Part shown: positions 3,918 through 44,250 of the stretch, in pieces
Layout of the letters: every line of letters starts with the position of its first letter
How positions within the stretch are numbered: position 1 is the stretch's first letter
DNA from: Candidatus Margulisiibacteriota bacterium
GTDB taxonomy: Bacteria; Margulisbacteria; WOR-1; O2-12-FULL-45-9; XYB2-FULL-48-7
Assembly (NCBI GenBank): GCA_018822365.1
Contig: JAHJKL010000070.1
Location: 1,941 to 65,940, forward strand
Direction of reading: 5' to 3'
Length of the DNA stretch: 64,000 bases
Position numbers and translations under genes: made by a program
Notes under the pieces: model-generated
Databases searched by the model: none
What the model saw: the letters and a program-made list of their open reading frames with translations, nothing else
Told to the model about the DNA's origin: nothing

Positions 3918-4379
3918 ATGCCAATTAACTTATTGATCTTACTGCTAGGCCTGACTTTTTGGACGGTGCTCACGCCTCCCCACATGTCCAACACCGAAGC
4001 GGTCTTTCAGGCCCGGCCGGTCATCAGCGCGACCATCGGCGAGAAAACATATGAACTGGAGATCGCGGACGACCTGGCCAAACGGGGTCGCGGTCTCTCA
4101 TGGCGTAAATCACTGGCCAAAAACCGGGGAATGCTCTTCCTTTTTGAAAAACCGGACCAATATGTTTTTGTTATGGACGGCATGCTTTTTCCCCTGGATT
4201 TTATCTGGCTAAAACAAGGGGTTGTTGTTGCCCTTAAAGAAGATGTCCAGCCGTCCAAACCGGACCATTCCTCGACCAATATCGTTACCAATACACATTT
4301 TGATCAGACGATCGAACTCAACGCCGGAGAAATAAAAACAACCCATATAAAGATCGGCGATCGTGTTTCTTATTTTTGA
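3918..4379 (+). CDS. DUF192 (COG1430) family protein with N-terminal TM/signal segment
   Basis: The DUF192-like core 'GMLFLFEKPDQYVFVMDGMLFPLDFIW' is present, and there is an N-terminal hydrophobic segment. Confidence 0.55.
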   Translation: MPINLLILLLGLTFWTVLTPPHMSNTEAVFQARPVISATIGEKTYELEIADDLAKRGRGLSWRKSLAKNRGMLFLFEKPDQYVFVMDGMLFPLDFIWLKQGVVVALKEDVQPSKPDHSSTNIVTNTHFDQTIELNAGEIKTTHIKIGDRVSYF

Positions 4380-4410
4380 CTATTGTCGTGAATAATGATA
4401 TAAATTAGCC

Positions 4411-7400
4411 ATGAACAAGCCCAAATACTCGATCTCCAAACAGAATGAATTTGTGATCGGGAACTACAATCAGGCCCCGACTTTTTCCAGTTTTTTTCCC
4501 GGAATAGCGGGTATTTTTGGCTGTCCAATGTGGGTTTTTTACGCCAATCGGGGGCAGTGTATCGCCTCTGCCGGCGTCCAGGACAAGAACGGGGCGATCA
4601 TTGAGTTCCACGCCGCTAACAAAGCCTACCGAAATGCCCATCTGCAGGGGTTCAGGACTTTCCTGAAGGTCGACGGCCAATTCTACGAACCATTTGCCGA
4701 AACCTCCCCCTGCCAGAACGAGCTCCGGATCAATCCTTACGATATCAAGCTTATCGAAGAAAACCCCGATCTTAAGATCAGGGTCGAAGTTCATTTTTTC
4801 AATATTCCCGATGAGCATTTCCCGGCCCTGGCCCGGACGGTCAAGATCGTTAATCTGGGTAAAAAAGCCCGCCAGGTAGAAGTTGTCGACGGCCTGCCGA
4901 TCATCATCCCCTTTGGCTTTGAAGATTTCCTCCTCAAGAAAATGAGCCAAACGATCGAGGCCTGGTGCATTGTTGAAAATCTTGATCAGGGGGTCCCCTT
5001 CTACAAGCTAAAGGTCCTGCCGGCCGACAACGCCGAAACCAAACTGCTTAAAAAAGGGAACTTCTACCTCCCTTTCTGCCAGGATGGCCAGCCGGTCGCG
5101 ACCATCGTCGACCCAACGGTCGTCTTTGGCGAAAACAGCAGCCTGGAGAGGCCGGACAATTTTTTGGGTAAAAGTTTTAAAGTACCCGGAAAGCAAATGA
5201 CCGATGGATTTACTCCGGCCGCCTTTGCCCACAAGAAATTCACCCTGACCGGTGATTTTGAGCTCTCCTCGATCATTGGCCAGATCGACAGCCTCGACCT
5301 GCTAAATAACGACAAACCCCGACTGATGAGCCGAAGCTACCTGGAGGCAAAAGCTGCCGCCAACCAGAACCTGATCAATGGGATCGGCGATTCAATGGAC
5401 ATCCGGAGCGCCAGCCGGAGCTTTGATCTTTATTCCCGCTACACCTTTCTGGACAACGTCATGCGGGGAGGGCTCCCGCTCATGATCGGCGGCAAACCGA
5501 TCTATCTCTACTATCGCAAGCATGGCGACATGGAACGCGATTACAACGACTTCAAACTTATGCCAACCTATTTTTCCCAGGGGAACGGCAACTACCGCGA
5601 CATTAATCAAAATCGGAGGAACGACCTGTTTTTTAACCCGGAGATCAAAGAGAGCAACATTGTCCGCTTCTTTAACCTGATCCAGCTTGACGGCTTCAAC
5701 CCGCTGGTCGTGCTGGGGAGCAAATATTTCATCGAGTCGTACCACACCGCGGAAACGCTGGCCAAGAAACACCTGCGGGAACCGGAAAAGCAGGCGATCG
5801 AAAAGATCGCCCGGCCGTTCATTCTGGGCGAGCTGCTCAAAGAATTTGAGCTCGAAGGGGTCCAATACCAGACCACACGCGAGGCCTTTGCCTCCGACCT
5901 GCTGCAGAGCAGCGAGGTCGAGGAAGGGGCGGTCCATGGCGAAGGGTTCTGGATCGACCATCCCTTTTACAACACCGATTTACTGGAAAGTTTTGAGGCG
6001 GTCTATCCCGACCGGATCACCGACGTTCTCTTTAACCAAAAAAACCTGACCTTTTTCGACAATGATCATGTCGTCGTCCCGCGCCAGGAAAAATACAAGC
6101 TCTGTGACGGCAAGGTCCGCCAGTATGAAAGCGTAAAACTTGATCCCGAAAAAGCGGCCCTGATCAACCACCGGGCTGTCAACAAAAACGCCGTCCGGGT
6201 CGACCACGGCAAAGGGAAGATCTACCATACCACCCTGGCGGCCAAGCTCCTCTGCCTGATCGCCAATAAAGCGGCCACCTTTGATGCCGCCGGGATCGGC
6301 CTGGAGATGGAGGCCGACAAGCCCGACTGGTATGATGCTCTTAACGGACTGCCGGGGCTTTTAGGCTCCTCCTTGTCCGAAACCCTGGAGCTAAAAAGAG
6401 TAGCCGCCTACCTGCTCTTGCGCCTGGAAAACGGGAAGGAGCTCGTCTTGCCGGCCGAAGTCAAAGAATTTATCGACCACCTGCTCCCCATCCTGGCCGA
6501 AACAGACAGCCACAAATATTGGGAGACAACCTACCAGCTGAAAGAAAAGTACCGCCAGAAAATCAAACTTGGGATCGCTGGGAGCGAAAGCGCCATTGGA
6601 CCACAGGAAACGGAGCGGCTGCTCGGGCTGGTTATTGCCCGCTGCGACCAGGCAGTGGAAAAGGTCTTGTCCAAATACGGCAATTACTACACCTATTTCG
6701 TCAACGAGGTCAGCTCGTACGAAGAGCTAGGCCAGGAGATCAGGGTCAAAGGGTTTTGCCAGAGCCCCCTGCCTCTCTTCCTGGAGGGGTTTGTCCACGC
6801 GCTCAAGGTCGAACGGGACGCGAGCATTTACCAGCGGGTCAAAGAGAGCCCGCTCTTTGACAAAAAACTGAAGATGTACAAGGTCAATGCCCCGCTGACC
6901 GAAATGCCGGTCGAGATCGGCCGGACCCGGATCTTTGCCCCAGGCTGGCTGGAGAACGAATCGGTCTTTGTTCACATGGAATACAAATATTTGTTGGAAT
7001 TATTAAAGGCCGGATTATACAAGGAGTTCTTTACCGACTTCAAAAACGTGCTGGTCCCTTTTATGGACCCCAGGGTTTACAAGCGGAGCATCCTGGAGAA
7101 TTCTTCGTTCATCGTCAGCTCCGCCCACCCCAACGCCAAAAATCACGGACGGGGTTTCATTGCCCGGCTCTCGGGCGGGGCAGCCGAATTCATCGACATG
7201 TGGCTGACCATGACTACCGGGAAAAGGCTCTTCTTCCTCGATCAGACGGGAAAGCTCTGTTTCCAGCTCAAGCCGGTCCTCCCCGCCTGGCTTTTTAAAC
7301 AGGGGGAATTAAGCTTCAGGCTTTTTGGCAAGATCGAGGTCGTTTACCTCAACTCCAAAAGAAAAGATTCCTTTGACAAGCTCCCTCTCTCCTATAAATT

Positions 7401-7509
7401 ATTTTTTGACGACAAAGAAATCGAGATCGCCCACCCCATTATCCAAGAACCTTACGCGTCAATGATCAGGGAGCGGAAGGTCAAAAAGATCGTGGCGCGC
7501 CTCTCTTAG
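4411..7509 (+). CDS. Large (1032 aa) GH94-clan-like glycoside phosphorylase (candidate GH149/GH161-type)
   Basis: The motifs 'NGNYRDINQNRRND' and 'DKPDWYDALNG' parallel the GH94 'GFRDSNQDTLG' and 'ADWNDCLNLDQG' catalytic-region motifs found in the neighbouring GH94 gene. It is co-oriented with the GH42 and GH94 genes. Confidence 0.5.
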   Translation: MNKPKYSISKQNEFVIGNYNQAPTFSSFFPGIAGIFGCPMWVFYANRGQCIASAGVQDKNGAIIEFHAANKAYRNAHLQGFRTFLKVDGQFYEPFAETSPCQNELRINPYDIKLIEENPDLKIRVEVHFFNIPDEHFPALARTVKIVNLGKKARQVEVVDGLPIIIPFGFEDFLLKKMSQTIEAWCIVENLDQGVPFYKLKVLPADNAETKLLKKGNFYLPFCQDGQPVATIVDPTVVFGENSSLERPDNFLGKSFKVPGKQMTDGFTPAAFAHKKFTLTGDFELSSIIGQIDSLDLLNNDKPRLMSRSYLEAKAAANQNLINGIGDSMDIRSASRSFDLYSRYTFLDNVMRGGLPLMIGGKPIYLYYRKHGDMERDYNDFKLMPTYFSQGNGNYRDINQNRRNDLFFNPEIKESNIVRFFNLIQLDGFNPLVVLGSKYFIESYHTAETLAKKHLREPEKQAIEKIARPFILGELLKEFELEGVQYQTTREAFASDLLQSSEVEEGAVHGEGFWIDHPFYNTDLLESFEAVYPDRITDVLFNQKNLTFFDNDHVVVPRQEKYKLCDGKVRQYESVKLDPEKAALINHRAVNKNAVRVDHGKGKIYHTTLAAKLLCLIANKAATFDAAGIGLEMEADKPDWYDALNGLPGLLGSSLSETLELKRVAAYLLLRLENGKELVLPAEVKEFIDHLLPILAETDSHKYWETTYQLKEKYRQKIKLGIAGSESAIGPQETERLLGLVIARCDQAVEKVLSKYGNYYTYFVNEVSSYEELGQEIRVKGFCQSPLPLFLEGFVHALKVERDASIYQRVKESPLFDKKLKMYKVNAPLTEMPVEIGRTRIFAPGWLENESVFVHMEYKYLLELLKAGLYKEFFTDFKNVLVPFMDPRVYKRSILENSSFIVSSAHPNAKNHGRGFIARLSGGAAEFIDMWLTMTTGKRLFFLDQTGKLCFQLKPVLPAWLFKQGELSFRLFGKIEVVYLNSKRKDSFDKLPLSYKLFFDDKEIEIAHPIIQEPYASMIRERKVKKIVARLS

Positions 7510-7530
7510 TTTTGCTACAATGTGTGAACT

Positions 7531-9300
7531 ATGTACCCTTTTGGCGTAACTTTTTACCCCGACCAGTGGCCGCTCGGCACCTGGGAGGAGACCTTTAAAA
7601 AGATCAAAGAGAGCGGTTTAAATACTATTCGTTTTGGTGAGATGGCCTGGGACTGGGTCGAGCCGGAACCGGGGAAGTACCGCTTCTACGACCTTGACCG
7701 GGCGCTCGACCTTTGCGAAAAGATCGGCCTGCAAGTTCTGCTGGGCCTCCCTACCTCCCAGGTCCCAAGCTGGTTTTATCGAAAATACCCGAACAGCCGG
7801 CCGGTCGCCCAGGACGGGACCCTCTATCCGGAATACGGTCCCCGACCCAATATCTGCAAAGACAATCCCCATTACCGGATGCACGCCGAAAAACTGGTCC
7901 GAACTATGGTCAAGCGCTACAGCAAGCATCTGGCGGTCGCTATGTGGCAGGTCGACAACGAACCGGTCTATCCACCCCTTGACCACACCACCTCCAACGA
8001 CTTTTGCCACTGCGAACATTCCCGCCAGGCCTTTATTAAATGGGCCAGGGAAAAATACGGAACGATCAAAAAACTGAACGATGCCTGGGGGACCAGGTTC
8101 TGGACGACTACCTTCTTCTCTTTTAACGATATCCTGACCCCCAAAGCGGGGATCTGGGAAGCGGTTTCTCCGCATATTTTCCTCGACTGGTTCCGTTTCA
8201 AGACCGACAGCTTGAGCCAGTGGATCAACCACCTGGCCGACGTTGTCCGGGAATACGATAAATTCCACAAGGTTGGGACCAACGGCTTTGTCGGGATCTG
8301 CACCCGGGTTCCCGACCACAGCAAAATGGTCGGCAACCTCGACTGGTACGGGCTCGACATTTACCCCAAAGGGGGACGGATGGACCCGCAGGGGCTCGCC
8401 TTCCACTATGACCTGTGGCGGAGTTTTGTGAGGGGGACCAAAGCAGAATTCCACATCACCGAACTCCAGGGGGGACAGAATGTCCGCTGGGGCGCCCCGG
8501 AATATGTCGAGGGGCCGGAGATCCGCGGCTGGACGACCGCCGCGCTCGAGCATGGAGCCGAAGCGATCCTCTACCACGCCTGGCGGCCGCCGCTGTTTGG
8601 CGCCGAGACCGGCGGGTTTGGCATTTGCAATGTTGACGGATCATCCAGCAAGCGGCTGGAAGTAATCAAGAAGCTTGCCGGAGACATTCGCTCCGGCAAA
8701 CTTAAAAAAGCCAATTGCAAAGCTAAGCTCGCGATCGCTTATTTGCGAAGCAGTGAGATCCAGTCGTATCAGGAGCAAGGCCCGCCGCGCGGCATTGCCG
8801 GACAATGGGAAGCGGTCAGGGGCGATATCGGGATAATGTATTCGATCCTGTCGCTGGGAGGAGCTTATTCGGTCCTTTTCCAAAAAAGCGAACCGGCCGA
8901 TTTTATTTTTGAGCGCGAACTTGATAGCGGCGACCTTCCTTATAAAGTTATTTTAATGCCAAACCCCTACCTGCTTTCTCAAAAGCAATACGATAATCTG
9001 AAAAAATGGATCAGCGCCGGCGGCAAGCTGATCACCGAAGCCCGCTTTGGCCTGAAAAATGAAATGGGGCATCTGCTTGAACACCCCTTTCTGGAAGACC
9101 TGATCGGTGAAAAGTACGAATTCACCGCCCCCACTCCAACCGGCTTTATTGACGGACTGCAAGGTCGCCCGCGCAAAGAACAAGTTTTCACCAAGAAGAT
9201 CGGCAAGGGAAAAGCGGTTTACGCCAACTTCAGTCTCTTTTTGCAGATCAAGAACGGCAATAAAAAGTTGGCCAACCTGGTCAACAAAGAGCTGGCCTAA
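7531..9300 (+). CDS. GH42-family beta-galactosidase-like glycoside hydrolase (short, 589 aa)
   Basis: The N-terminus 'FGVTFYPDQWPLGTWEETFKKIKESGLNTIRFGEMAWDWVEPEPGKYRF' matches the GH42 TIM-barrel start. An 'VDNEPVY' acid/base-type motif and 'HITELQGG' are present. Confidence 0.7.
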   Translation: MYPFGVTFYPDQWPLGTWEETFKKIKESGLNTIRFGEMAWDWVEPEPGKYRFYDLDRALDLCEKIGLQVLLGLPTSQVPSWFYRKYPNSRPVAQDGTLYPEYGPRPNICKDNPHYRMHAEKLVRTMVKRYSKHLAVAMWQVDNEPVYPPLDHTTSNDFCHCEHSRQAFIKWAREKYGTIKKLNDAWGTRFWTTTFFSFNDILTPKAGIWEAVSPHIFLDWFRFKTDSLSQWINHLADVVREYDKFHKVGTNGFVGICTRVPDHSKMVGNLDWYGLDIYPKGGRMDPQGLAFHYDLWRSFVRGTKAEFHITELQGGQNVRWGAPEYVEGPEIRGWTTAALEHGAEAILYHAWRPPLFGAETGGFGICNVDGSSSKRLEVIKKLAGDIRSGKLKKANCKAKLAIAYLRSSEIQSYQEQGPPRGIAGQWEAVRGDIGIMYSILSLGGAYSVLFQKSEPADFIFERELDSGDLPYKVILMPNPYLLSQKQYDNLKKWISAGGKLITEARFGLKNEMGHLLEHPFLEDLIGEKYEFTAPTPTGFIDGLQGRPRKEQVFTKKIGKGKAVYANFSLFLQIKNGNKKLANLVNKELA

Positions 9301-12379: not shown

Positions 12380-13273
12380 ATGAAAACGATTAATTGCGCG
12401 GTTACGTTGCTATTGTTTTTTTGCTTGGCCGTTCCCGCGCTGGCCGTGCCGCAATATTTAAATTATCAGGGGGTCTTGCGTGACGACCAGGGACGCCTGG
12501 TTGCCGGGACCAAGTCGCTGACCTTTAAGCTCTATGATGTTTCAACATCCGGGACCTCTCTCTGGGAAATGACCTCCCCCGAAGTCGCGGTCAATAACGG
12601 CCTCTATAATGTTCAGCTTGGCCCACTTGGTTACGCCGAGCTTGCCTCCGGCCGCCGCTGGCTCGAAATTGCCATTGGGACAGAAACTCTTTCTCCCCGG
12701 CTCGAGATCCTCTCCGTCGCCTACGCGGTAACGGCGGGCCAGGCCGAATCGGCGACCACTCTTGGGGGATACTCTCCAGCCATAACCGGGAGCGGGAGCT
12801 TTATTCCGGTCACAACTAGCGGAAAACTTGATGCGTCAGTCATTCCAACTTCCAGCGGCGGAAATGCCGATACGGTCGACAGCTTTCACGCCAACTCAAC
12901 CGCTACCGCCGGGCAGATCTTGCCCCTTGACAGCAATAAACAGCTCAAAGGGATGTCGGTTTCAGCGGAGGCTAGCGGGAACAATTACGCTTTGTTTGTT
13001 AATGGAGGGAAATTTGGGGTTAAAACCGGATCGAACATGAGCGTGGGGACCGGAACGATTACAACAGCTAGCGGGGTCTCCTTTGTCGATGTTACCAACA
13101 CAAGTATTACACCAAATAGTTTAGTGTTTCTAACAGTTGGATCTGCTGGCGCAAACAGTCATGGGGGAATAAAAGTTACAACCATTACTAATGGAGTAAA
13201 GTTTAGAGTTGCTACAATGGACAGTAGCCCTGCAACCGTTGATATCCCTTTTAATTATCTAGTTATTAATTAA
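12380..13273 (+). CDS. Secreted beta-rich protein with N-terminal 'INYQG' motif (tail-fibre-like module)
   Basis: There is a signal peptide. The stretch 'VPQYLNYQGVLRDDQGRLVAGTKSLTFKLYDVSTSGTSLWEMTSPEVAVNNGLYNVQLG' is a motif recurrent in large secreted proteins of uncultivated bacteria. The rest is Ser/Thr/Gly-rich. Confidence 0.5.
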   Translation: MKTINCAVTLLLFFCLAVPALAVPQYLNYQGVLRDDQGRLVAGTKSLTFKLYDVSTSGTSLWEMTSPEVAVNNGLYNVQLGPLGYAELASGRRWLEIAIGTETLSPRLEILSVAYAVTAGQAESATTLGGYSPAITGSGSFIPVTTSGKLDASVIPTSSGGNADTVDSFHANSTATAGQILPLDSNKQLKGMSVSAEASGNNYALFVNGGKFGVKTGSNMSVGTGTITTASGVSFVDVTNTSITPNSLVFLTVGSAGANSHGGIKVTTITNGVKFRVATMDSSPATVDIPFNYLVIN

Positions 13274-14241
13274 TAGGAACAAGTATTAATCGAGAAGTCT
13301 AGCAATTGAGGTGTGTCAACTACATTTGGCGATGTAAAAACAAATCTAACGTTTGCACATTGTTTATCAAATCCGTTATCAGTTTGAATTAAATCTCCAT
13401 TTAATGGCAACCAGGCGGACCAATTTGATCCGCAGTCTCCATTTTGAGTTTCAACATAAATATTTGTCCCATTTTGGCTCAAAATATTCATAACAACATT
13501 GGCTCCGTTTCCAAGATTATTTGGCAATGGAACGTTAATTGCTACTAGATATGAACCATATGTCTGCCCATTTAATATTAATGCGCCAGCAACTGAAAAA
13601 GGGTCTAAACTCCCAGATGGATCAACAGTCCCTATGATCCAGTTGTCTGTCTCAGAATAATTCTGTGGCGCGCAAACCGGCCCATCGGCTACGTCCGCTT
13701 CTGCCTCAACAACATCCTGAATCACATCTTCGGTAATGTCCGGAATTATATCCTGCGCGATATCCTCAATAACATCGGGGATAATATCCGGTTTAATATC
13801 TTCCGCAACATCCTGGACCACATCTTCGGTAATGTCCGGGATAACATCAAGTAACGTGTCCAGAGGGGAATCTTGTTCCACGTCAGGTAATACATCCGGC
13901 AAGACATCAGGGGTGTCGTTGTCCACATCAATAATAGTATCCAGCGCGACATCGGCTAAAGCGTCGGCCTCTTTCCCCCCGTCTAAGACATCTTCAACCG
14001 TATCGGTTAAAACATCTTTACCGTCAACGTCGGTCAATGAGGCATCGGTTAATGTTTGCTCTTTTCCCGGCGCGAGCATCTCCGCGGCAAAAGAACAACC
14101 GATTGCCAGATGAGCGGCGGTTGCCATCGCCGCTAAGCCTGACAATTGGCCAAGCTTGGCGGCCCGTATATTTGGGGTTGCTTTTGGCATCGATGTTTGT
14201 GGACGAATCCTGGAAACCATTACCGACAATCTACTGATCAT
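13270..14241 (-). CDS. Secreted (lipo)protein with acidic 8-aa tandem repeats and a Cys-containing C-terminal domain
   Basis: The ATG at 14241 is preceded by a GGAGGG RBS, and the signal peptide ends in a lipobox-like AIGC. About 15 repeats of the type 'PDI(T/I)EDV(V/I)Q' occupy residues ~60-190. The ORF-track TTG at 14253 is less likely to be the start. Confidence 0.55.
   Translation of the reverse strand: MISRLSVMVSRIRPQTSMPKATPNIRAAKLGQLSGLAAMATAAHLAIGCSFAAEMLAPGKEQTLTDASLTDVDGKDVLTDTVEDVLDGGKEADALADVALDTIIDVDNDTPDVLPDVLPDVEQDSPLDTLLDVIPDITEDVVQDVAEDIKPDIIPDVIEDIAQDIIPDITEDVIQDVVEAEADVADGPVCAPQNYSETDNWIIGTVDPSGSLDPFSVAGALILNGQTYGSYLVAINVPLPNNLGNGANVVMNILSQNGTNIYVETQNGDCGSNWSAWLPLNGDLIQTDNGFDKQCANVRFVFTSPNVVDTPQLLDFSINTCSY
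13690..13900 (-). repeat. In-frame 24-nt tandem repeat array (encodes the D/I/V-rich octapeptide repeats)
   Basis: A visible 24-nt periodicity (e.g. ggtaatgtccgggataacatc / ggtaatgtccggaattatatc variants) encodes 'DITEDVVQ/DVAEDIKP/DIIPDVIE...'. Confidence 0.6.
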
Positions 14242-15547
14242 TTTTCCCTCCAATATTCACCATTGACAGCGAAAAGTTGGTCTGGCCAAATTGCAATAAG
14301 TGGTTCCGCCTGATCTGCCTTAGCTCGTCAACAAAGACCCGGGCCGAAGGATGGCGGTTCTCAGCTTTTTTTTGAAATGCCTTGGTAAAAAAATCCGACA
14401 GCGGTTCGCCCAGAAAGGCAAAATCAGGAAGCGGGATGTTCTCGTCCATTACCCGCCGGCCGTAGGCCGAGGCATCATCGGTCGGCTTGATCGGATAAGG
14501 GGCTCGTCCCGTGATCAGCTCAAAAACAATGACCGCCAGGGCGTAATAATCGGCCCGCCAATCTGCCTCTTCCCCCCGCCAGACTTCCGGCGACATATAA
14601 AGAGGGGTACCAAATACTCCTTGTTTATAAGCTTGAGTAAGCTTGAGCGATTTTTTCCCCAGATCACGCCTAACATATTTGGCCAAACCCCAGTCACCGA
14701 TCTTGAAGCGATCGCGATCTTCCCCTTCGGTCCGGTAGACAAAAATGTTGTCAGGTTTAAGGTCGCGGTGGACTATCCCCTCCCTATGGACCGACAGCAA
14801 AGTCTCGCCGATCGAGATCGCCAGGTCCAGAACATAATCAACCGGGAAATGGTTGACCCCTTCCTGCTGTTGTTTTTTTTCAACAATGTTTTCCAACGTT
14901 CCTGAAGGCATAAATTCCATGGTAATGTATGGGATCGAACCATTAAAACTATGCAGTGGCCTGCCAGTGAGGGCGGTAAAGGTCTTCGGGCTAAGCCGAC
15001 CCAGGTCATAAAGATGGACCACCCCTTCGATCACCAGTCTCGCCTGGTTTCTCGCTTCCGCGCTTTCAAACCGGGCGATCGTCGCCGGGTCATTGAGCGA
15101 CCCTTCAAGCGGTATTTTTAACACGACATCCAGGTCAAGGCGCCGGTCATAGGCTAATATTGTTGACGCCATCCCTCCCTGGCCTAACGGTCTTTTGACC
15201 TCATAACGCTCCATAAATGACTGGTGAAGGTGGTCTTCTTTCATCGCCTGGAGAGCTGTCATTTCACCTTTTTGCAATTCCAGCTCTGCCGCATTGCCGG
15301 CTAACGTCAGTCGATCAGAAACCAAGACCTTATGCGCGCCATAACCCAACACCGCGCTCGCCAATGCCGCGACCAGGTGCGACCACGGCTTATAGAGCGG
15401 GTCGTTAAAAGAAGCTCTGACGCTCCCGTAGGCCCCGCCAACCGCACAAGCCGCGATCAATGCCCCCCTGGCTACATTGGAAGCAACTCGATGCCGGTTG
15501 GCCAACCCATCAACTCGAGCCAGCTGTTTAGTGATCGAACTGACCAT
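14231..15547 (-). CDS. Hanks-type Ser/Thr protein kinase, N-terminally membrane-anchored
   Basis: Kinase motifs are GQGGMASTI (Gly-rich loop), VVLKIP, HRDLKPDNIF, IGDWGLA and GTPLYMSPE. Two hydrophobic segments lie at the N-terminus. The start ATG overlaps the upstream stop (TAATG). Confidence 0.8.
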   Translation of the reverse strand: MVSSITKQLARVDGLANRHRVASNVARGALIAACAVGGAYGSVRASFNDPLYKPWSHLVAALASAVLGYGAHKVLVSDRLTLAGNAAELELQKGEMTALQAMKEDHLHQSFMERYEVKRPLGQGGMASTILAYDRRLDLDVVLKIPLEGSLNDPATIARFESAEARNQARLVIEGVVHLYDLGRLSPKTFTALTGRPLHSFNGSIPYITMEFMPSGTLENIVEKKQQQEGVNHFPVDYVLDLAISIGETLLSVHREGIVHRDLKPDNIFVYRTEGEDRDRFKIGDWGLAKYVRRDLGKKSLKLTQAYKQGVFGTPLYMSPEVWRGEEADWRADYYALAVIVFELITGRAPYPIKPTDDASAYGRRVMDENIPLPDFAFLGEPLSDFFTKAFQKKAENRHPSARVFVDELRQIRRNHLLQFGQTNFSLSMVNIGGKNDQ

Positions 15548-35815: not shown

Positions 35816-36264
35816 ACGAATTAGCCGTTTTTCTCCTGGCGGCTATCCCGGTCTTTGAGGTCAGAGGAGCGGTTCCGCTGGGAATTGCGGTTTACAAGCT
35901 GGCGCCGCCTACCGTTGTTCTGCTTAGCATTTTAGGCAGCATTCTGCCGATCTTCCCGCTGCTCTGGTTCCTGGAAAACATTACCGAACACCTGGAAAAG
36001 ATCCCCGTATTTAATAATTTTCTCCAATGGTTATTCACCCGAACCCGTTCGAAAAGCGGTCTGATCAAAGAGATGGAATTGATCGGCTTAACCATTTTTA
36101 TCGCCATCCCCTTCCCCGGAACCGGGGTCTGGACCGGAACGATCGCCGCCTATCTCCTCGGCCTGCGCTGGGGTCCGACCTTTTTTGCCGGATTTATCGG
36201 AACAACTATCGCATCCATTTTGGTTGCCGCCGCGACCTTAGGCGTGATAAACTTTATCCTATGA
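35812..36264 (+). CDS. Small multidrug-export-like membrane protein (COG2426 family)
   Basis: It is a 150-aa protein with four TM segments. It overlaps the PPIase stop and the dxr start. Confidence 0.5.
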   Translation: MNELAVFLLAAIPVFEVRGAVPLGIAVYKLAPPTVVLLSILGSILPIFPLLWFLENITEHLEKIPVFNNFLQWLFTRTRSKSGLIKEMELIGLTIFIAIPFPGTGVWTGTIAAYLLGLRWGPTFFAGFIGTTIASILVAAATLGVINFIL

Positions 36265-37394
36265 AAAAAGGGATCGTCATCCTTGGCTCCACCGGCTCCA
36301 TCGGGAAGCAGGCGCTGGAGATCGTCTCCATCTATCCCAGCCGGCTGAATGTTGTTGCCCTGGCCGCCAAGAACGATATCCCGGTCCTGGTCGAACAGAT
36401 CAATAAGTTCCAGCCCCAACTTGTCGCGCTGGCAACCGAAGAAGGAAAACAGAAACTACTTGCCGCTTTGCCGGAGATCAAAGCGGAGGTTGTTGTTGGC
36501 CCGGATGGTTTAGTCAAAGCAGCCACCATGACGACCGCCAAACTGGTCGTGGTCGCGATTCCCGGCGCCGCCCCGCTCTCAGCCGCTTTTGCTGCTGTTC
36601 ATGCCAAGAAAGATATCGCCCTCGCCACCAAAGAGGTCCTGGTTGCCGCCGGGGAACTGTTTATTAAAGAGGTTGTTGCTAACAAAGTTAAATTATTTCC
36701 GATCGACAGCGAACACAGCGCCATCGCCCAGTGTTTAAAAGGGGAAGACCGTAAAACCATTAAAAAGGTCATCCTAACCGCTTCAGGCGGTCCGTTCCTG
36801 AAAACCCCTGCTGAAAAGTTCGCTTCATTAACCGCCAAAGAAGCATTAAAACACCCGACCTGGAAGATGGGGCCCAAGGTCACCATCGATTCCGCGACCT
36901 TAATGAATAAGGGACTGGAAGTGATCGAAGCGCACCACCTTTTTGGGCTGGATTATTCCCAGATCGAAGTTATTATCCACCCGGAAAGCACCATTCACTC
37001 TATGGTTGAGTTTATTGACGGATCGGTCATCGCCCAGTTAGGCGCCCCTGACATGCGGATCCCGATCCAGTATGCGCTCCTGGAAGAAGAACGACAACAA
37101 AATATGTGGGGTCGGCTCGATTTTACCAAAGTCGCGCAACTGACGTTCCAAAAACCTGACTTTGTTAAGTTCCCCTGTCTGAAATACGCCTATGACGCGG
37201 GAAAAAAAGGGGGGACGACAACCGCGGTGCTTAACGCCGCCAGTGAAGTGGCGGTCCGCCAGTTCCTTGACGGCAAGATCAACTTCGCCCAGATCCCCCA
37301 GCGGATTAAAGCGGTCCTTGATAAACACGAGAGCCAACCGATCGCCTCGCTGGAGACCATCCTGGCTGCCGATACCTGGGCCAGATCAAATTAA
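36262..37394 (+). CDS. dxr: 1-deoxy-D-xylulose 5-phosphate reductoisomerase
   Basis: The true start is 'MKKGIVILGSTGSIGKQALEIV' at 36262. The longer ORF-track N-terminus is an artefact. DXR motifs are present throughout. Confidence 0.9.
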
Positions 37395-37481
37395 ATATTT
37401 TTTATTCTCCTGAATTTTCTTCATCTTTTTAACGATATATCAGTAAGCGACTGTTTAAGTCAAGCAAAAAGAGGCGTTTTT

Positions 37482-38111
37482 TTGGGAATAATTTCAGCTG
37501 TTATAAGAAATATTGGGGGGCAAATTAAACCAAGATCACCATGCCTTGTTAATAGAGGACCATATCGCCTCCCCGGCAATACGGCTCCCGTTCAACCACA
37601 AGAAGCCTTTATCAGAGAAAAGCTCGCGAGAAGCATTTCAACGATGAGGACTGATAAAGCCGGCAGGATTACGTATCTTTCGTTGAAAAATATAACCGAT
37701 AGCGACATTCCCCCATTGCAAGCCTTGTCTAATTTGCAGCGGTTGTACTTATGGGGAAGTCAAGTTTCAGATGCCGGTTTGTCTCACCTCTCATCTCTCT
37801 CTAACCTGCAAGAATTGTATCTTTTTAGCAGTCTTGTCACTGATGCCGGCCTCCCCTCTCTTTCATCCTTATTAAATCTGCAAATATTGTATCTGCGTAA
37901 CGCTCAAATTACTGATGCCGGCCTCCCACAACTCTCTCACCTGTCAAATTTATATTGGTTGGATCTAACAGGCGCCAGAGTCTCTGACCTAGGTTTAGCG
38001 CATCTTTTATCCTTAACTAATTTGCAGCGGCTGGAACTAAGGCACACCCAGGTTACGGAAGCCGGGATCACTAATTTTAACAAAACAATGCCAACCTGTA
38101 ATATTTATTAA
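37482..38111 (+). CDS. Leucine-rich repeat protein (24-aa RI/Cys-containing-type LRRs)
   Basis: There are six repeats of the form 'LSxLSNLQxLYLxxxxVTDAGLxxLSxL'. No signal peptide is present. The start is TTG or a downstream ATG (MRTDK). Confidence 0.65.
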   Translation: MGIISAVIRNIGGQIKPRSPCLVNRGPYRLPGNTAPVQPQEAFIREKLARSISTMRTDKAGRITYLSLKNITDSDIPPLQALSNLQRLYLWGSQVSDAGLSHLSSLSNLQELYLFSSLVTDAGLPSLSSLLNLQILYLRNAQITDAGLPQLSHLSNLYWLDLTGARVSDLGLAHLLSLTNLQRLELRHTQVTEAGITNFNKTMPTCNIY

Positions 38112-38120
38112 CGCCCTAAC

Positions 38121-38156
38121 GTCCTGGCCACCGATACCTGGGCAAGGACCGCCTAA
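38121..38156 (+). repeat. Degenerate duplicate of the dxr 3' end (12 codons plus stop)
   Basis: 'gtcctggccaccgatacctgggcaaggaccgcctaa' encodes VLATDTWARTA*, compared with the dxr terminus 'atcctggctgccgatacctgggccagatcaaattaa' (ILAADTWARSN*). The downstream 'cctgaaattcc' also echoes 'cctgaattttc' found after dxr. Confidence 0.55.
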
Positions 38157-38195
38157 CAACCTGAAATTCCCGCCGATAGTTGACGACGTTTTTTT

Positions 38196-39080
38196 ATGAT
38201 ACCAAAAGTGAAGTTTTACGATCTCACTGCCGCTGGAAGACGGTTCCTCAACGATAACGAGGTCTGTACTTTTTATTTCGATCGCACCAATTTAAGGGCT
38301 CGAGGAGGGATGTCACATATCCATGAACAAACCTTGCTCAGCGGCAAAAAGGTCGCCACCAAGGGGCTCCCGGACGATAAGCCGATCAACCCCGAAAACG
38401 TGTTCTATCTAGCCAATGAAGCCAGGGGGCTGGCCACCCTTCTTCAAGACAAACCGCACCCAAATATTATTGATTATTTCGGCCTCGTCCGCATCGGCGA
38501 ACGCCCCTTTATCATAATGGAACTGTTAGAGGAGCAGGACCAATCAAATCGCTCTCTCGGCTCCCCCCTCCCGGTGGATGAAGTTTTAACGATCGGCCTG
38601 GGGATCGCGAAAGGATTGCATCACGTCCACAAGCACGGCTTGACCCACCGGGACGTAAAACCAAGCAATTTTGTCGGCACGAAACTGATCGATTTCGCCT
38701 TTTGCTGGAAAAACGGCCTCCCCATCGTCATTGACGGTCACCAGCATAGCAGCGGCACCTCCGGCTACTTTTCCCCGGCGATCGTTAGCGGCTCCGAACC
38801 GACCATTCAAGACGATATATATTCCCTTGGTGTCTCTCTCTTTGAGATGCTCACCGGCAAATTAGCCCTCCCCCCCGGGATCGATCCCCATATTTCCAGG
38901 AATCTCCTGGGGAGCAGGATCGCTGATCTTGCTGTTTGCCGGGGTTTAACGCCAGGTATTGCTGAACTCCTATTTACCGCGACCAAAACTACGCCTGAAG
39001 TCGGGGTCATGAGGGAAAGTGGTTTTTCCAGTTGCCGCGACGTCATCCGCTTTATCAAATCCTTAATTAACGTCGATTGA
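38196..39080 (+). CDS. Atypical protein-kinase-like protein (possible pseudokinase)
   Basis: It has the catalytic loop 'HRDVKPSNF' and 'DFA' in place of DFG. There is no canonical GxGxxG loop, and an APE-like motif is absent. Confidence 0.6.
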   Translation: MIPKVKFYDLTAAGRRFLNDNEVCTFYFDRTNLRARGGMSHIHEQTLLSGKKVATKGLPDDKPINPENVFYLANEARGLATLLQDKPHPNIIDYFGLVRIGERPFIIMELLEEQDQSNRSLGSPLPVDEVLTIGLGIAKGLHHVHKHGLTHRDVKPSNFVGTKLIDFAFCWKNGLPIVIDGHQHSSGTSGYFSPAIVSGSEPTIQDDIYSLGVSLFEMLTGKLALPPGIDPHISRNLLGSRIADLAVCRGLTPGIAELLFTATKTTPEVGVMRESGFSSCRDVIRFIKSLINVD

Positions 39081-39118
39081 TCGTGAAAGCCTCGTCTTTT
39101 TTATGATATAATTATTTA

Positions 39119-40837
39119 ATGAGTAAATTTGATTTGGAAACCCTGCGCCACTCAACTTCCCACGTCCTGGCCCAAGCGGTCATGGAAATCTTTCCCGGAG
39201 TAAAACTGGGGATTGGGCCTTCGACCGACGACGGATTTTACTACGACTTCGACCTGCCGCAAGCAATCACCCCGGAAGACCTCCCCAAGATAGAAAAAGC
39301 GATGAAAGATATCTGTAAAAAGAACCAGAAATTCGAACGGCGGGAAGTCAGCAAGGACGAAGCAATTAAATTATTCGAGGAAAGAGGAGAAAAATACAAG
39401 GCCGAAATCATCAAAGAAATAGAGGCCGACAAGGTTTCGCTCTATCATAACGGCGATTTTTTCGATCTTTGCCGCGGCCCTCACGTTGATTTTACCGGCC
39501 GGATCAAGGCCTTCAAGCTCCTCTCCATTGCTGGCGCCTACTGGCGCGGCCTTGAAACTAATCCGATGATGCAACGGATCTATGGGACCGTTTTCCCAAC
39601 TAAAGAGGAGCTTGATGCTTACTTAAAGAACCTAGAAGAGGCTAAGAAACGAGACCACCGCAAACTTGGTAAGGAGCTCGACCTCTTTTCGCTCCACGAA
39701 GAAGCCGGGGCCGGGCTGGTTTATTACCATCCAAAAGGAGCCATGCTCCGGAGTTTGATCGAAGATTTCATGAAGAAGGAAAATCTTAAGCGCGGGTATG
39801 AACAGGTTTACATTCCCCACATCGCCAAGATCGACCTTTGGAATACTTCCGGCCACACCAATTATTACCGCGAAAATATGTATTTTATGAAGATCGATGA
39901 ACAGGAATACGTGGTCAAACCAATGAACTGCCCCGGTCACATCCTGATCTACAGCCGGAAGACCAGAAGTTATCGCGACCTGCCGATCCGCTACTTTGAG
40001 TTTGGCACGGTTTATCGCTATGAAAAATCCGGGGTCTTGCATGGCCTTCTCCGTGTCCGGGGTTTTACCCAAGATGACGCTCATATCTTCTGCCGTGAGG
40101 ACCAGCTCGAAGGGGAGATCGTTCAAACCTTAGATTTTATCGCGTTTGTCATGAAAACCTTTGGTTTTGACTTCAAGATCAACCTTTCCACCCGCCCGGA
40201 AAGCTTTGCCGGGACGGCTGATAATTGGGACAGAGCAACCGCTATTCTGGAAAAAGCGCTTCAGGATCGGGGGCTTCCGTTTGAGATCGACCCAGGAGCA
40301 GGGGTTTTTTACGGTCCAAAGATCGATGTTAAACTGAAAGACTCCCTCGGCCGCGCCTGGCAGGGACCAACAGTCCAGGTCGACTTCAATCTCCCCCAGC
40401 GCTTTAACCTTAATTATATTGGCGAAGATGGCAAGCAACAGACCCCGGTTATGGTTCATCGCGCTATTCTGGGCAGCCTGGAGCGATTTATTGGCGCTCT
40501 AATTGAACATTACGGGGGGGCATTCCCATTCTGGCTCGCCCCCACCCAAGTCTCTATCTTGCCTGTTTCCGACCGTCATAATGATTACTCGGAAAAAGTC
40601 GCCGCCCAGCTCCGGGAGATCGGCGTCCGGGTCGAGGTTGACGCCAGGCGGGAAACGATCGGGGCCAAGATCAGGAACGCCCAGTTGGCCAAGGTCCCCT
40701 ATATGCTGATTCTTGGCGATAAAGAAGAACAAGCCGGCACGGTCGCCATCCGCTCCAGGGAAAAGGGTGAGCTTGGCGTTAAGACCATCCAGGATTTTTC
40801 CTTTGACCTCCGCCCTGAAATGCGCTATAATACATAG
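39119..40837 (+). CDS. thrS: Threonine--tRNA ligase (lacks N-terminal TGS domain)
   Basis: It begins at the N2/editing region 'LRHSTSHVLAQAV'. Class II motifs and the anticodon-binding domain are present. It is 572 aa against about 640 aa typical. Confidence 0.9.
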   Translation: MSKFDLETLRHSTSHVLAQAVMEIFPGVKLGIGPSTDDGFYYDFDLPQAITPEDLPKIEKAMKDICKKNQKFERREVSKDEAIKLFEERGEKYKAEIIKEIEADKVSLYHNGDFFDLCRGPHVDFTGRIKAFKLLSIAGAYWRGLETNPMMQRIYGTVFPTKEELDAYLKNLEEAKKRDHRKLGKELDLFSLHEEAGAGLVYYHPKGAMLRSLIEDFMKKENLKRGYEQVYIPHIAKIDLWNTSGHTNYYRENMYFMKIDEQEYVVKPMNCPGHILIYSRKTRSYRDLPIRYFEFGTVYRYEKSGVLHGLLRVRGFTQDDAHIFCREDQLEGEIVQTLDFIAFVMKTFGFDFKINLSTRPESFAGTADNWDRATAILEKALQDRGLPFEIDPGAGVFYGPKIDVKLKDSLGRAWQGPTVQVDFNLPQRFNLNYIGEDGKQQTPVMVHRAILGSLERFIGALIEHYGGAFPFWLAPTQVSILPVSDRHNDYSEKVAAQLREIGVRVEVDARRETIGAKIRNAQLAKVPYMLILGDKEEQAGTVAIRSREKGELGVKTIQDFSFDLRPEMRYNT

Positions 40838-40858
40838 GTTGTATGGGGGTTAAGAACT

Positions 40859-41368
40859 ATTAAACAGTACCAGGTTAACGAGCGCATTTGGGCAAAAGAA
40901 GTCAGACTGATTGACGAAAACGGACAACAGCTTGGCAATTGCCCAACCCCAGACGCACTTAAGCTTGCTCGCGAGCGGGGCTACGATCTTATCCTGATCG
41001 CGCCGACCGCGACTCCGCCCGTCGCCAAGATCGGCGATATTGGCAAGCTCAAGTATGAACTTTCAAAAAAAGAAAAAGAGGCACGCAAGTCCTCTAAATC
41101 AGGGGTTATAAAAGAGGTTAAGCTCTCCCCCAAGATCGCCCAGCATGATTTTGACGTGCGGGTTAATAAGACCAAAGAATTCCTCGCGAAGGGTTACAAG
41201 GTCAAGATCAATATTTTCTTCCGGGGGCGGGAAATGGCCCATAAAGAACTGGGACACCGGGTCCTGGGCAGGATGATCGAAGCGATTACGGAGGCGGGCA
41301 AGCCAGAGGCTCCTCCAAAAATGGAAGGTAAGAACCTAAATTTAATGCTTGCGCCGGTGAAACACTAA
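40859..41368 (+). CDS. infC: Translation initiation factor IF-3 (non-AUG start)
   Basis: The IF-3 sequence 'IKQYQVNERIWAKEVRLIDENGQQLG...' has no in-frame ATG. The frame is open from the thrS stop TAG (40835-40837), and the candidate start is AUU at 40859. The ORF track shows only the C-terminal 70 aa. Confidence 0.7.
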   Translation: MKQYQVNERIWAKEVRLIDENGQQLGNCPTPDALKLARERGYDLILIAPTATPPVAKIGDIGKLKYELSKKEKEARKSSKSGVIKEVKLSPKIAQHDFDVRVNKTKEFLAKGYKVKINIFFRGREMAHKELGHRVLGRMIEAITEAGKPEAPPKMEGKNLNLMLAPVKH

Positions 41369-41565
41369 TGCCAAAAGCAAAAACAAGACGAGCGGCCGCA
41401 AAAAGGTTTGAAATTAAAAAGTCGGGAAAGATCTTAAGACGGTCTTCCGGATTACGCCACCTTTTGGAATGGAAATCTGCGTCCAAAAGACGGCGTCTGA
41501 AAGCGAAAAAAGAAGTTTCGCCTTCGGATGTCAGGCGGATCCACGATATGCTCCCAGGAGGCTAA
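41368..41565 (+). CDS. rpmI: 50S ribosomal protein L35
   Basis: 'MPKAKTRRAAAKRFEIKKSGKILRR' matches L35. Confidence 0.85.
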   Translation: MPKAKTRRAAAKRFEIKKSGKILRRSSGLRHLLEWKSASKRRRLKAKKEVSPSDVRRIHDMLPGG

Positions 41566-42763: not shown

Positions 42764-43180
42764 TTAAAGTTCCTTCCTGTTTTCAAGATTTCCGTCTATT
42801 AATTCACCGCAGATAAAAGCCCTGGCTTGCGAAAAACAGCCTATCGAATAAACCCGGCCCCCCTCCCTCTCCCTGACTACTTTAACCTCTCCCCGACCTA
42901 AAACAAACCGTTCGCCGATCGCGCTTCCCGCCAACCAGGCTTTTATATTCCCCGAAGGGGGTGGCATATCGGTGAACCAGGCATGGTTTTTATCGATCCT
43001 TGCGCTGGCTAATTCCAATCCACCGGATGCCAGCCAATACGCCCTTTCCTTGTCAAACAAAGCCCTTGTCGTCCAGAGGGTATTATAAACTATTCTGGCG
43101 GTAATTACACCCAAGGCCAGCAACGTTCCTCCAATTATTATTACCAACAAAAGAGCGACACCATGTCTCATTTTTTGCAT
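42764..43180 (-). CDS. Pseudopilin-like protein (minor, GspK/J-like)
   Basis: It has an N-terminal hydrophobic helix and is the last gene of the prepilin operon. Confidence 0.45.
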   Translation of the reverse strand: MQKMRHGVALLLVIIIGGTLLALGVITARIVYNTLWTTRALFDKERAYWLASGGLELASARIDKNHAWFTDMPPPSGNIKAWLAGSAIGERFVLGRGEVKVVREREGGRVYSIGCFSQARAFICGELIDGNLENRKEL

Positions 43181-43578
43181 ACAATTATTTCCCTTTTATT
43201 GATTTCTATCGCCAGCTCTCTGCTGCTGATCAATTTGCAAACGAACCGGTCAATCTCTCCAGCGTTGGTCAACGGTTGCTTGACCGCGGTTTTCCTTTTT
43301 ACTATCCCTTCTTCATAAACATAGCCGCTCCCAACCCCATCAATAACCAAAGAGATCTCCTTTGACGAGACAATCGTCTGGCTTGCAGCCGATCTAAGCT
43401 CTCTGGTTAATCGAGCGGCCAAGATACTTTCGGCCTGGCGCTTTAAGCTGGTTTTTATTATCTTGTCGGCGCTCCGGACCTCTGCTGAAAACAAGAGAAT
43501 GATCGTCGGAATTATAGCCGCCAGCAAACTTATCGCCAACAGCGCTTCGATCAATGTAAAGCCTTTACGTCCGCTCAT
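43168..43578 (-). CDS. Prepilin-type N-terminal cleavage/methylation domain protein (minor pseudopilin)
   Basis: 'KGFTLIEALLAISLLA' is a class III signal. Confidence 0.65.
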   Translation of the reverse strand: MSGRKGFTLIEALLAISLLAAIIPTIILLFSAEVRSADKIIKTSLKRQAESILAARLTRELRSAASQTIVSSKEISLVIDGVGSGYVYEEGIVKRKTAVKQPLTNAGEIDRFVCKLISSRELAIEINKREIIVCKK

Positions 43579-43892
43579 TTTGCCCTCCGCAAGGTTGAAA
43601 GAAGAAGCGGCTTATGGCCCAAACTGTTAATTATCAAGTCAATTTTGACAATATTTTCGGCATATAGTGTAACAATAAAATGATGATCCGGGCCATCAAC
43701 GAGTTTTGTATAATCATCCGCCAGCTCGATCTCGGCCAGTGCTTTTTGGGCGACAGCTATGGAATTGGCATAATATTGTTCCTGGTCGGTTATTTTCCCT
43801 GTCTGCTTAAAGATCGACAGCGAGCCAAATGAGAAAAGAAAAAGCAAAGCGGCAGCGACCAGGACTTCTATCAAAGTGTATCCTTTATTCAC
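43575..43892 (-). CDS. Prepilin-type minor pseudopilin (GspI-like)
   Basis: 'KGYTLIEVLVAAALL' is a class III signal. Confidence 0.65.
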   Translation of the reverse strand: MNKGYTLIEVLVAAALLFLFSFGSLSIFKQTGKITDQEQYYANSIAVAQKALAEIELADDYTKLVDGPDHHFIVTLYAENIVKIDLIINSLGHKPLLLSTLRRAK

Positions 43893-44250
43893 CCCTGACC
43901 CTCCCGGCGGAAGAAATTATCACCTTTCGAGGTTTGCCGGATCTAATGTTCAAAACAAGGGTCCCTGAGCCTCCCGGCAGAGTATATCCATCTGCGGTAA
44001 AAATAATTGATTTTGCCGAAGGGGCGGTCACGCCAGGCAGGATCGGACTAATTGTTTTGCATTCCGCCTGGCCAGAAGTGGCCAAAGCCAAAGCCTGCCC
44101 TCGTCTTAGATTGGAAACCGACAGACTGGCGGCAGTTTTGACCAACAACCGGTCTTTTAGCCGGTTCACCGACGGCAGCATAATAATGGTTAATAAGCTG
44201 AAAATAGCCAGCACGGCTAAAAGCTCGACCAGCGTGAACCCCCGCCTCAT
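43885..44250 (-). CDS. Prepilin-type minor pseudopilin (GspH-like)
   Basis: 'RRGFTLVELLAVLAIFSLL' is a class III signal. Confidence 0.65.
   Translation of the reverse strand: MRRGFTLVELLAVLAIFSLLTIIMLPSVNRLKDRLLVKTAASLSVSNLRRGQALALATSGQAECKTISPILPGVTAPSAKSIIFTADGYTLPGGSGTLVLNIRSGKPRKVIISSAGRVRGE

Follow-up and report, generated by a model that had tools for sequence, protein, structure and literature searches.

Introduction

Bacterial Hanks-type serine/threonine kinases are represented by PknB, StkP and Stk1, and Stk2 of Staphylococcus is a stand-alone defence kinase. Leucine-rich repeats (LRRs) often serve as the sensor domains of immune receptors, and in eukaryotic LRR receptor kinases they are combined with a protein kinase. 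An LRR scaffold can also bind and activate kinases, as does YopM, a type III effector that is secreted, has repeats of 20-22 residues and targets kinases of the host. Literature searches for Margulisbacteria together with LRRs, and for bacterial Hanks-type kinases together with LRRs, yielded nothing relevant. Here we describe a protein kinase gene and an LRR protein gene that lie between dxr and thrS in a stretch of 64,000 nucleotides (nt) from Candidatus Margulisbacteria. This whole stretch is referred to as the window and all coordinates are given along it, except for those of the relatives' loci compared, which are denoted by L-numbers. A preliminary description of the window had presented the two genes as a eukaryote-like split pair of LRR protein and atypical kinase, inserted into a housekeeping locus. 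The two open reading frames (ORFs) lie exactly where they had been placed and encode proteins of 209 and 294 amino acids (aa), respectively. On balance we favour, as reasonably likely, the interpretation that both are accessory genes in a slot that lies between dxr and thrS and is prone to recombination, and that they encode a soluble Hanks-type kinase with DFA in place of DFG and an optional cytoplasmic LRR protein.

Results

A Hanks-type protein kinase with an altered DFG motif

The 294-aa protein matches the Pfam family Pkinase (PF00069; E = 8.4e-24) with 84.8 bits, where the cut-off is 31.7. Its best sequence match in the PDB is StkP (1.8e-15), and alignment with StkP places K56 (beta3 Lys), E75 (alphaC Glu), D153, K155, N158 and D166 (the Mg-binding Asp) on the catalytic residues. 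HRDVKPSN forms residues 151-158 and DFA residues 166-168, while the APE/SPE position reads SPA. These motifs had been read correctly in the preliminary description; the Gly-rich loop, for which it had found no canonical form, is degenerate (A-R-G-G-M-S, not GxGxxG) rather than absent. In an alignment of 39 sequences the catalytic residues fall in invariant columns, and the window kinase deviates from near-invariant columns only at G168A and E195A. Since the missing DFG glycine and APE glutamate belong to conserved motifs and are not catalytic residues, membership of the superfamily stands and the kinase is atypical, as had been noted, at DFG and APE.

The protein kinase P+1 motif GT (G187-T188) and the subdomain IX aspartate (D207) are conserved, which argues for a protein kinase and against a small-molecule kinase. 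At E <= 1 its Pfam matches included none of APH, Kdo/WaaP, ABC1 and RIO; no housekeeping small-molecule kinase matched it over the full length, and small-molecule kinase families gave weak overlapping catalytic-loop matches in relatives only. No transmembrane segment and no extra domain was detected in the protein, which ends at residue 294. The NCBIfam model PknB_PASTA (NF033483) scored 89.8 bits against a cut-off of 450 and covered the kinase domain alone, so this is not a PASTA kinase. An AlphaFold 2 (AF2) model (predicted local distance difference test, pLDDT, 80; predicted template modelling score, pTM, 0.84) was best matched by Foldseek to PknB (5u94/1o6y) and Stk1 (9ymt), with template modelling scores of 0.67-0.77, and then to IRAK4 and Pto, all four with a probability of 1.00.

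The ratio of non-synonymous to synonymous substitution rates (dN/dS) was 0.073 for the window kinase and its orthologue in L088, and 0.11 for the kinases of L085 and L089 compared with each other, values that indicate strong purifying selection. Codon usage of the kinase gene is native, as measured by the GC content at third codon positions (GC3; z = 0.27). The preliminary description had left room for a pseudokinase or a small-molecule kinase. Given the retained catalytic residues, the P+1 GT motif, the subdomain IX aspartate, the missing APH and Kdo matches and a dN/dS of 0.07, both are unlikely, and the protein is probably catalytically active.

An identical kinase in NCBI, recorded under "Candidatus Margulisbacteria bacterium" (assembly GCA_043812375.1), is annotated from M39, inside the Gly-rich loop, as a protein of 256 aa. 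The 38 codons upstream of M39 (38196-38309) are conserved with respect to an orthologue of 83% identity (proportions of non-synonymous and synonymous differences, pN 0.09 and pS 0.91). Because these codons are conserved under purifying selection, we take 38196 as the real start; the start codon chosen by NCBI is probably wrong, 38 codons too far downstream.

The KLIDFA kinases and their chromosomal slot

Relatives of the kinase were sought with HMMER, exhaustively among 1.84 billion representatives. No relative of more than 39% identity was found outside the kinase's own cluster, and two proteins, P0315 and P0309, are full-length stand-alone relatives that share the sequence KLIDFA. A profile built from four members scored members at 426 bits or more and the next protein at 172 bits. 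We define the KLIDFA subfamily as compact stand-alone kinases of 290-334 aa with K[LV]IDFA, GTxxY and, in most of them, a loop of the type GG[MY][SA]. All ten members have DFA and none has DFG; the change that marks the window kinase thus defines the whole subfamily. The beta3 lysine, the catalytic aspartate, the asparagine and the DFA aspartate are kept in 10/10, the catalytic-loop lysine in 9/10 and the alphaC glutamate likewise in 9/10, the exception for the latter being the first kinase of L090. The APE glutamate is lost in most members.

The dxr-thrS interval of loci of Margulisbacteria type houses nine of the ten members. They fall into four types: type A in the window, L088 and L001; type B in L085 and L089; type C in L087 and L104; and type D in L090, which has two tandem kinases. 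The latter (3934-5807; HADIKPEN/VIDFAL and HVDIKPQN/LIDFAF) are encoded by ORFs that overlap by 4 nt. The window kinase shares 95% aa identity with its orthologue in L088 and 83% with that in L001. The tenth member, L093 3352-4272, is found outside this slot, where its neighbours are PolX-like, RNase H-like and DJ-1-like ORFs. With HADINGGN its catalytic loop is degenerate, so that it may be a pseudokinase.

A leucine-rich repeat gene upstream of the kinase

The 209-aa protein matches LRR_4 (7.5e-16; 58.2 bits against a cut-off of 27), LRR_8 (29 against 27) and LRR_6 (27.8 against 23.4). The search of Pfam suggested in the preliminary description thus places both proteins, the kinase in Pkinase and its neighbour in these LRR families, above the respective cut-offs, with no match of the kinase to APH or Kdo at E <= 1. 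The repeats had been described as of Cys/RI type; the Cys type finds no support, and their best models are LRR_4 and LRR_6. The unit of 24 residues was recognized correctly, and six such repeats occupy residues 62-205 (37665-38096), with four 55-nt copies at multiples of 72 nt in the DNA. The protein is, however, not made almost entirely of repeats: these form only about 70% of it, preceded by a low-confidence stretch (residues 1-39) and a helical cap (residues 40-60) and followed by a C-terminal cap, TQVTEAG...MPTC. The N-terminus is rich in Ser, Thr and Pro. The repeats are 62-71% identical to each other in nucleotide sequence and all keep the consensus.

The AF2 model (pLDDT 83 overall) is a solenoid of strands and helices with pLDDT 88-98 from residue 60 onwards, and the top Foldseek matches were internalins, FBXL2 and the Chlorobium Roco LRR. 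NCBIfam InlA/InlH models scored 38 bits against cut-offs of 1050-1600, and there is no signal-like N-terminus, in agreement with the signal peptide noted as missing before; the protein is not a class 1 internalin. It belongs to a bacterial family with named members in Planctomycetota, Verrucomicrobiia, Polyangiales and Obscuribacterales. A Shine-Dalgarno-like GAGG lies 7 nt 5' of its TTG start codon.

L085 has an intact LRR gene of 277 aa that agrees with the window's in start, leader and position and adjoins a kinase 36% identical to that of the window. The blastn alignment of the window with L085 continues beyond the dxr stop codon, to 37440. GC3 of the LRR gene is 0.40-0.41 in both loci, compared with 0.55-0.65 for the kinase and the flanks. 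Both LRR proteins (window 37482-37500, L085 6994-7012) start with MG-x-I-(S/T) and share PYRL in N-termini that are otherwise unalignable and of low confidence. Since L001 lacks the LRR gene and family relatives have an N-terminal anchor, we had considered a late, truncated insertion present only in the window, an idea that the intact gene of L085 led us to drop. As a separate observation, no stop interrupts the LRR reading frame (37395-38111) from the first codon downstream of dxr, and dxr and the LRR gene share one frame.

Signs of insertion and exchange between dxr and thrS

In four Margulisbacteria/Saganbacteria relatives (L005, L006, L008 and L011), dxr is followed directly by the thrS promoter and thrS. 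Because dxr and thrS are adjacent there, the LRR and kinase genes are insertions into a housekeeping locus, in line with the preliminary description, which had also correctly named dxr upstream, thrS downstream and an insertion scar between them. The scar lies 11 nt past the LRR stop codon as a 25-nt copy of the dxr 3' end (37360-37384) that matches at 22 of 25 positions, a score reached in 0/500 shuffles. The relic at 38117-38156 is identical at 37 of 40 positions to the real dxr tail of L088, and both L088 and L089, which have no LRR gene, match the relic plus the spacer. A dxr-tail duplication longer than 25-40 nt in the window was not significant by strict local alignment. In L085, two directly repeated 124-nt copies of dxr 3'-end sequence (6796-6919 and 7826-7949; 123/124 identical) flank the LRR gene. 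This repeat is far better preserved than the 40-nt relic of the window, which points to a recent insertion or to gene conversion.

The position upstream of the kinase varies between loci. It holds the LRR gene in the window and L085, a conserved orphan ORF of 124 aa in the two type C loci (L087 529-903 and L104 3765-4139), a second kinase in L090, and nothing in L088, L001 and L089. In terms of types, the partner is thus the LRR gene for A and B, the 124-aa ORF for C and a second kinase for D. The fixed pair implied by the preliminary description is not borne out, the closest kinase orthologues (L088, 95%; L001, 83%) being without the LRR gene, which is not ubiquitous at the slot. In L010 the slot is occupied by an unrelated orphan ORF of 204 aa (7173-7787). 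Pfam gave nothing significant for the 204-aa ORF or for the 124-aa ORF of L104, the orphan ORFs of L010 and L087/L104 had no match in PHROGs, and PADLOC had none for the L010 ORF, the only orphan ORF scanned with it.

Divergence of the kinase is at odds with that of its flanks. Comparison of types A and B (window, L085, L088, L089) gave aa identities of 89-95% for dxr and 94-98% for thrS versus 36-37% for the kinase; the window itself shares 89-90% (dxr) and 94-96% (thrS) with L085, L088 and L089. Between the window and L001 it is the kinase that is closer (83% versus 72% for dxr). Synonymous divergence (dS) between the window and L088 was 0.37 for the kinase, 1.07 for dxr and 1.03 for thrS, and nucleotide identity of these two loci is approximately 91% over 38117-39307 and approximately 84% beyond. 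The best-supported account of these values is that the whole cassette was exchanged or replaced among related genomes. Import of the 3' segment of dxr was considered as well and set aside, since a sliding comparison of identity over the gene showed no clear signal. Motifs of the form CCTGAA..ACGATA that are common to the spacers are only suggestive.

The 12-mer TTTTTTATGATA occurs at 38190-38201, across the kinase start codon, and again at 39097-39108, within the extended -10 element of thrS. This duplicated 12-mer may be a footprint of the entry of the kinase into the dxr-thrS spacer.

Organization of the locus and neighbouring genes

The coordinates of the locus are collected in Table 1. The LRR protein and the kinase are encoded by separate ORFs, with a gap of 84 nt that holds the dxr-tail relic. 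No terminator-like site was found in 37200-39300, that is, none separating dxr, the LRR gene, the kinase and thrS, and Rfam gave no match in 36000-41500. The promoter-like site of thrS reached 10/12 with TG in a consensus scan, and TGATATA(A/C)T is kept 5' of thrS in L001, L005, L006, L008, L010, L011 and L087.

Table 1. Coordinates of features in and around the dxr-thrS slot of the window.
Feature	Position	Strand	Remarks
dxr (1-deoxy-D-xylulose 5-phosphate (DXP) reductoisomerase)	36261..37394	+	conserved left flank; the identical gene of L003/L004 matches Pfam DXP_reductoisom families
dxr tail (last ~35 nt)	repeat core 37360-37384		functional copy of the duplicated tail
Leader 5' of LRR gene	37395..37481	+	homologous to the leader of the L085 LRR gene
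LRR protein gene	37482..38111	+	209 aa; TTG start
dxr 3'-end relic	38117..38156	+	reads ...VLATDTWARTA, old stop codon included; downstream member of the direct repeat bracketing the LRR gene
Ancestral dxr-kinase spacer	38157..38195	+	matches the spacer between dxr and kinase in L088 (no LRR gene) at 100% identity
Kinase gene	38196..39080	+	294 aa; stand-alone Hanks-type Ser/Thr kinase, KLIDFA subfamily, type A
HRDVKPSN motif of kinase	38646-38669
DFA motif of kinase	38691-38699
thrS promoter-like site	39083..39112	+	extended -10 TGATATAAT; right edge of the variable slot
thrS (threonyl-tRNA synthetase)	39119..40837	+	conserved right flank; Pfam tRNA_SAD, tRNA-synt_2b, HGTP_anticodon

Elsewhere in the window a second, canonical Hanks-type kinase of 438 aa is encoded at 14231-15547 (-). 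It bears a hydrophobic segment at its N-terminus, and its motifs read GQGGMAS, HRDLKPDN, DWG and SPE, so that a Ser/Thr kinase of the ordinary, membrane-associated kind is present in this genome as well. Adjoining the second kinase is an ORF of 327 aa (13270-14253, -) rich in acidic repeats of the type DV(L/I)PD(V/I), whose GC3 of 0.40 is the lowest among the long ORFs of the window. Small pseudopilin-like genes, whose products have hydrophobic starts of the N-terminal methylation type, form a cluster at 42764-44250 (-), 3' of ribosomal protein genes, that is conserved in L085 and L104.

Discussion

As to function, our best guess is that the locus encodes an accessory kinase of the cytoplasm, with the LRR protein as an optional adaptor. 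That each kinase type has its own upstream partner and that no terminator-like site separates the genes hints at a partnership, in which the LRR protein might serve the kinase as adaptor, regulator or substrate. With alanine in place of the DFG glycine, the activation segment may be unusual and less flexible, and the kinase could be controlled by a partner instead of the usual DFG flip. The LRR gene, bracketed as it is by direct repeats of the dxr 3' end, could have been inserted by homologous recombination and be lost in the same way: such repeats would be the expected product of integration by a single crossover and would permit precise loss by recombination. Whole cassettes could likewise be replaced by recombination through the conserved flanks.

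Several observations weigh against this interpretation. The LRR gene is present in only two of the five type A/B loci, being absent from L088, L001 and L089, and the kinase thus persists without it. Active kinases almost invariably have the DFG glycine, the HRD arginine is retained by type A alone (window, L088 and L001) and the L093 member is without the catalytic-loop lysine; kinase function may be reduced or non-catalytic. Codon usage, for which a comparison with the flanking genes had been proposed in the preliminary description, is atypical for the LRR gene (GC3 0.41, z = -2.85) and, as stated above, not for the kinase. In a near-identical strain pair two of the four single-nucleotide polymorphisms (SNPs) in the LRR gene are non-synonymous, versus 0/4 in the neighbouring genes, and the NCBI annotation has no gene call at this ORF. 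Codon usage, SNPs and missing gene call are compatible with a passenger or a decaying gene. Finally, the LRR proteins of the window and L085 are approximately 41% identical, that of L085 ranks 33rd of 121 in blastp, and the N-terminal 61 residues of the two show no significant similarity; because their blastp similarity is not above that of generic LRR proteins, orthology rests on position, shared leader and termini.

The points on the LRR gene would also fit a pair of unlinked neighbours, with the kinase as resident accessory gene and the LRR gene as an independent passenger in the same permissive slot, which we regard as possible but doubtful. Apart from the loci that lack the LRR gene, its low GC3 in the window and L085 alike, its own direct-repeat brackets and the unrelated orphan ORFs that occupy the slot in L010, L087 and L104 speak for such independence. 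Across the 17 loci examined, however, the LRR gene was found only directly 5' of KLIDFA kinases. The two cassette types that have it are deeply diverged, its leader being homologous and its position the same in both, and the depth of its divergence (~41% identity) parallels that of the kinase (~36%). The LRR ORF could instead be an unexpressed remnant of an imported gene beside a kinase that functions alone. The TTG start, the density of SNPs, which exceeds that of the neighbours, and the absence of the N-terminal membrane anchor that most relatives in the family have are in keeping with decay, in addition to the atypical codon usage, the missing gene call and the non-synonymous SNPs. We nevertheless hold this to be unlikely, for the frame of 209 codons is intact, with canonical repeat positions, a complete C-terminal cap and GAGG 7 nt before the start; the repeats are old and yet all on consensus, the solenoid is modelled with confidence, and L085 has an intact counterpart of 277 aa with the same MG-x-I start. 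A pseudokinase, serving as non-catalytic scaffold or ATP-binding switch, would agree with the family-wide loss of the DFG glycine, the loss of the APE glutamate in most members, the HRD arginine being confined to type A, the degenerate Gly-rich loop and the HADINGGN of L093. By the usual criterion, a pseudokinase is without one or more of the Lys/Asp/Asp residues. All three, namely the beta3 lysine, the catalytic aspartate and the DFG aspartate, are kept in the window kinase and all ten members, the remaining catalytic positions are kept in at least nine, and dN/dS is 0.07-0.11, which makes a non-catalytic protein improbable.

A further possibility is a conflict module, a polymorphic anti-phage or self/non-self system in which the LRR protein senses a foreign protein and the kinase, as a Stk2-like effector, phosphorylates host or invader proteins. 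Conserved flanks around hypervariable cargo, deep types at one site in close relatives, a variable partner position and signs of recent exchange are what such a module might display. In an extended form of this idea, to which we give an equally low probability, the cytoplasmic LRR protein, or another partner in other cassette types, would recognize a foreign or non-self protein and then switch on a dedicated DFA kinase as the effector, and the deep types of this horizontally exchanged module would be held by frequency-dependent selection. The PADLOC models PD-T4-6 and mad6 match the kinase at 3.1e-30 and 4.9e-27. PD-T4-6 models, however, also flag a kinase with PASTA-like modules in every Streptococcus thermophilus genome analysed, with only a very mild phenotype (PMC11514479), so that this match is generic, and we rejected both PADLOC matches as evidence of defence. 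The kinase scores far below the NCBIfam cut-offs for MAD6 (58 versus 460) and PglW (40 versus 990), PADLOC had no match for the LRR protein or the L010 ORF, PHROGs matched generic kinase and LRR only, no other defence or mobile-element genes lie nearby, and the kinase is also found alone. A role in conflict or defence is therefore a minority possibility, suggested by the population pattern as its only pointer, and we consider it quite unlikely. Least probable, to the point of being very improbable, is a eukaryotic origin or target, that is, a relative of LRR receptor kinases in split form or a secreted effector pair for a eukaryotic host. IRAK4 and Pto are among the best folds for the kinase, as are internalins, LegL1 and FBXL2 for the LRR protein, and the MG-x-I-(S/T) start of both LRR proteins is reminiscent of an N-myristoylation signal. 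The best sequence and fold matches are nevertheless bacterial, StkP, PknB and Stk1 for the kinase and Planctomycetes-type proteins for the LRR. Among the 120 best-listed relatives of the kinase none had an LRR domain, and among the 120 best-listed relatives of the LRR protein none had a kinase domain, so fused relatives were missing from both sets of best matches. Neither protein has a signal peptide or a transmembrane segment, the codon usage of the kinase is native, and no secretion-system genes lie in the neighbourhood. The eukaryote-like character given to the pair in the preliminary description is thus not upheld.

Read as an accessory kinase with an optional LRR adaptor, the locus is of interest in several respects. 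The KLIDFA kinases form a small, clean Hanks-type subfamily with alanine at the site of the near-universal DFG glycine in every member, while the catalytic residues are under strong purifying selection, and they offer a natural test of the role of this glycine. The dxr-thrS slot is a miniature variable cassette locus between two essential genes of a reduced candidate-phylum genome, with deep types, an optional partner bracketed by gene-tail direct repeats, and signs of exchange. If the LRR protein and the kinase cooperate, they would reduce the LRR-plus-kinase logic of eukaryotic immune receptors to a minimal form with two components, and if they act in conflict, they would be a prokaryotic counterpart, made of two genes, to the LRR-kinase receptors of innate immunity; without cooperation, what is left is an ordinary accessory kinase and a passenger gene. 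The annotation also needs correction at the kinase start and for the uncalled LRR ORF.

Compared with PknB, StkP and Stk1, the window kinase shares the fold and all catalytic residues, but it is without a transmembrane segment, PASTA or other sensor domains, and it differs by DFA, SPA and an AxGxxS loop; with the exception of L093, moreover, KLIDFA kinases are restricted to one chromosomal slot in one clade. The stand-alone defence kinases of the PD-T4-6 type likewise consist of a kinase-domain protein in a variable locus. The PD-T4-6 hidden Markov model covers the window kinase over model positions 15-212 of 292 only, leaving its C-terminal third uncovered, there is no defence context, and these models are generic for Hanks kinases. 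The closest relatives of the LRR protein are membrane-anchored proteins of Planctomycetota, Verrucomicrobiota, Polyangiales and Obscuribacterales, named "leucine-rich repeat domain-containing protein" or "internalin A", with 39-47% identity over the repeats. They share the 24-residue unit LxxLxLxxTxVTDAGLxxLxxLxx, the cap TxVTxAG...LP..I and an AVxxIxxxGG-like module before the repeats, whereas the window protein has no N-terminal hydrophobic anchor, six repeats only and a non-homologous N-terminus of low confidence. With eukaryotic LRR receptor kinases, IRAK/Pelle and Roco/LRRK the likeness lies in the combination of LRRs with a protein kinase, with IRAK4 and Pto as strong folds; the Chlorobium Roco LRR shares 34% identity over 140 columns with the model of the window protein, at a root mean square deviation of 2.2. 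Unlike the LRR receptor kinases and Roco proteins, the locus consists of two ORFs 84 nt apart, with no transmembrane helix, signal peptide or Roc-COR GTPase, and its LRR part is optional. YopM offers a functional analogy only, that of a small soluble LRR solenoid as a candidate adaptor of a Ser/Thr kinase, here encoded with its kinase by chromosomal genes without a secretion signal.

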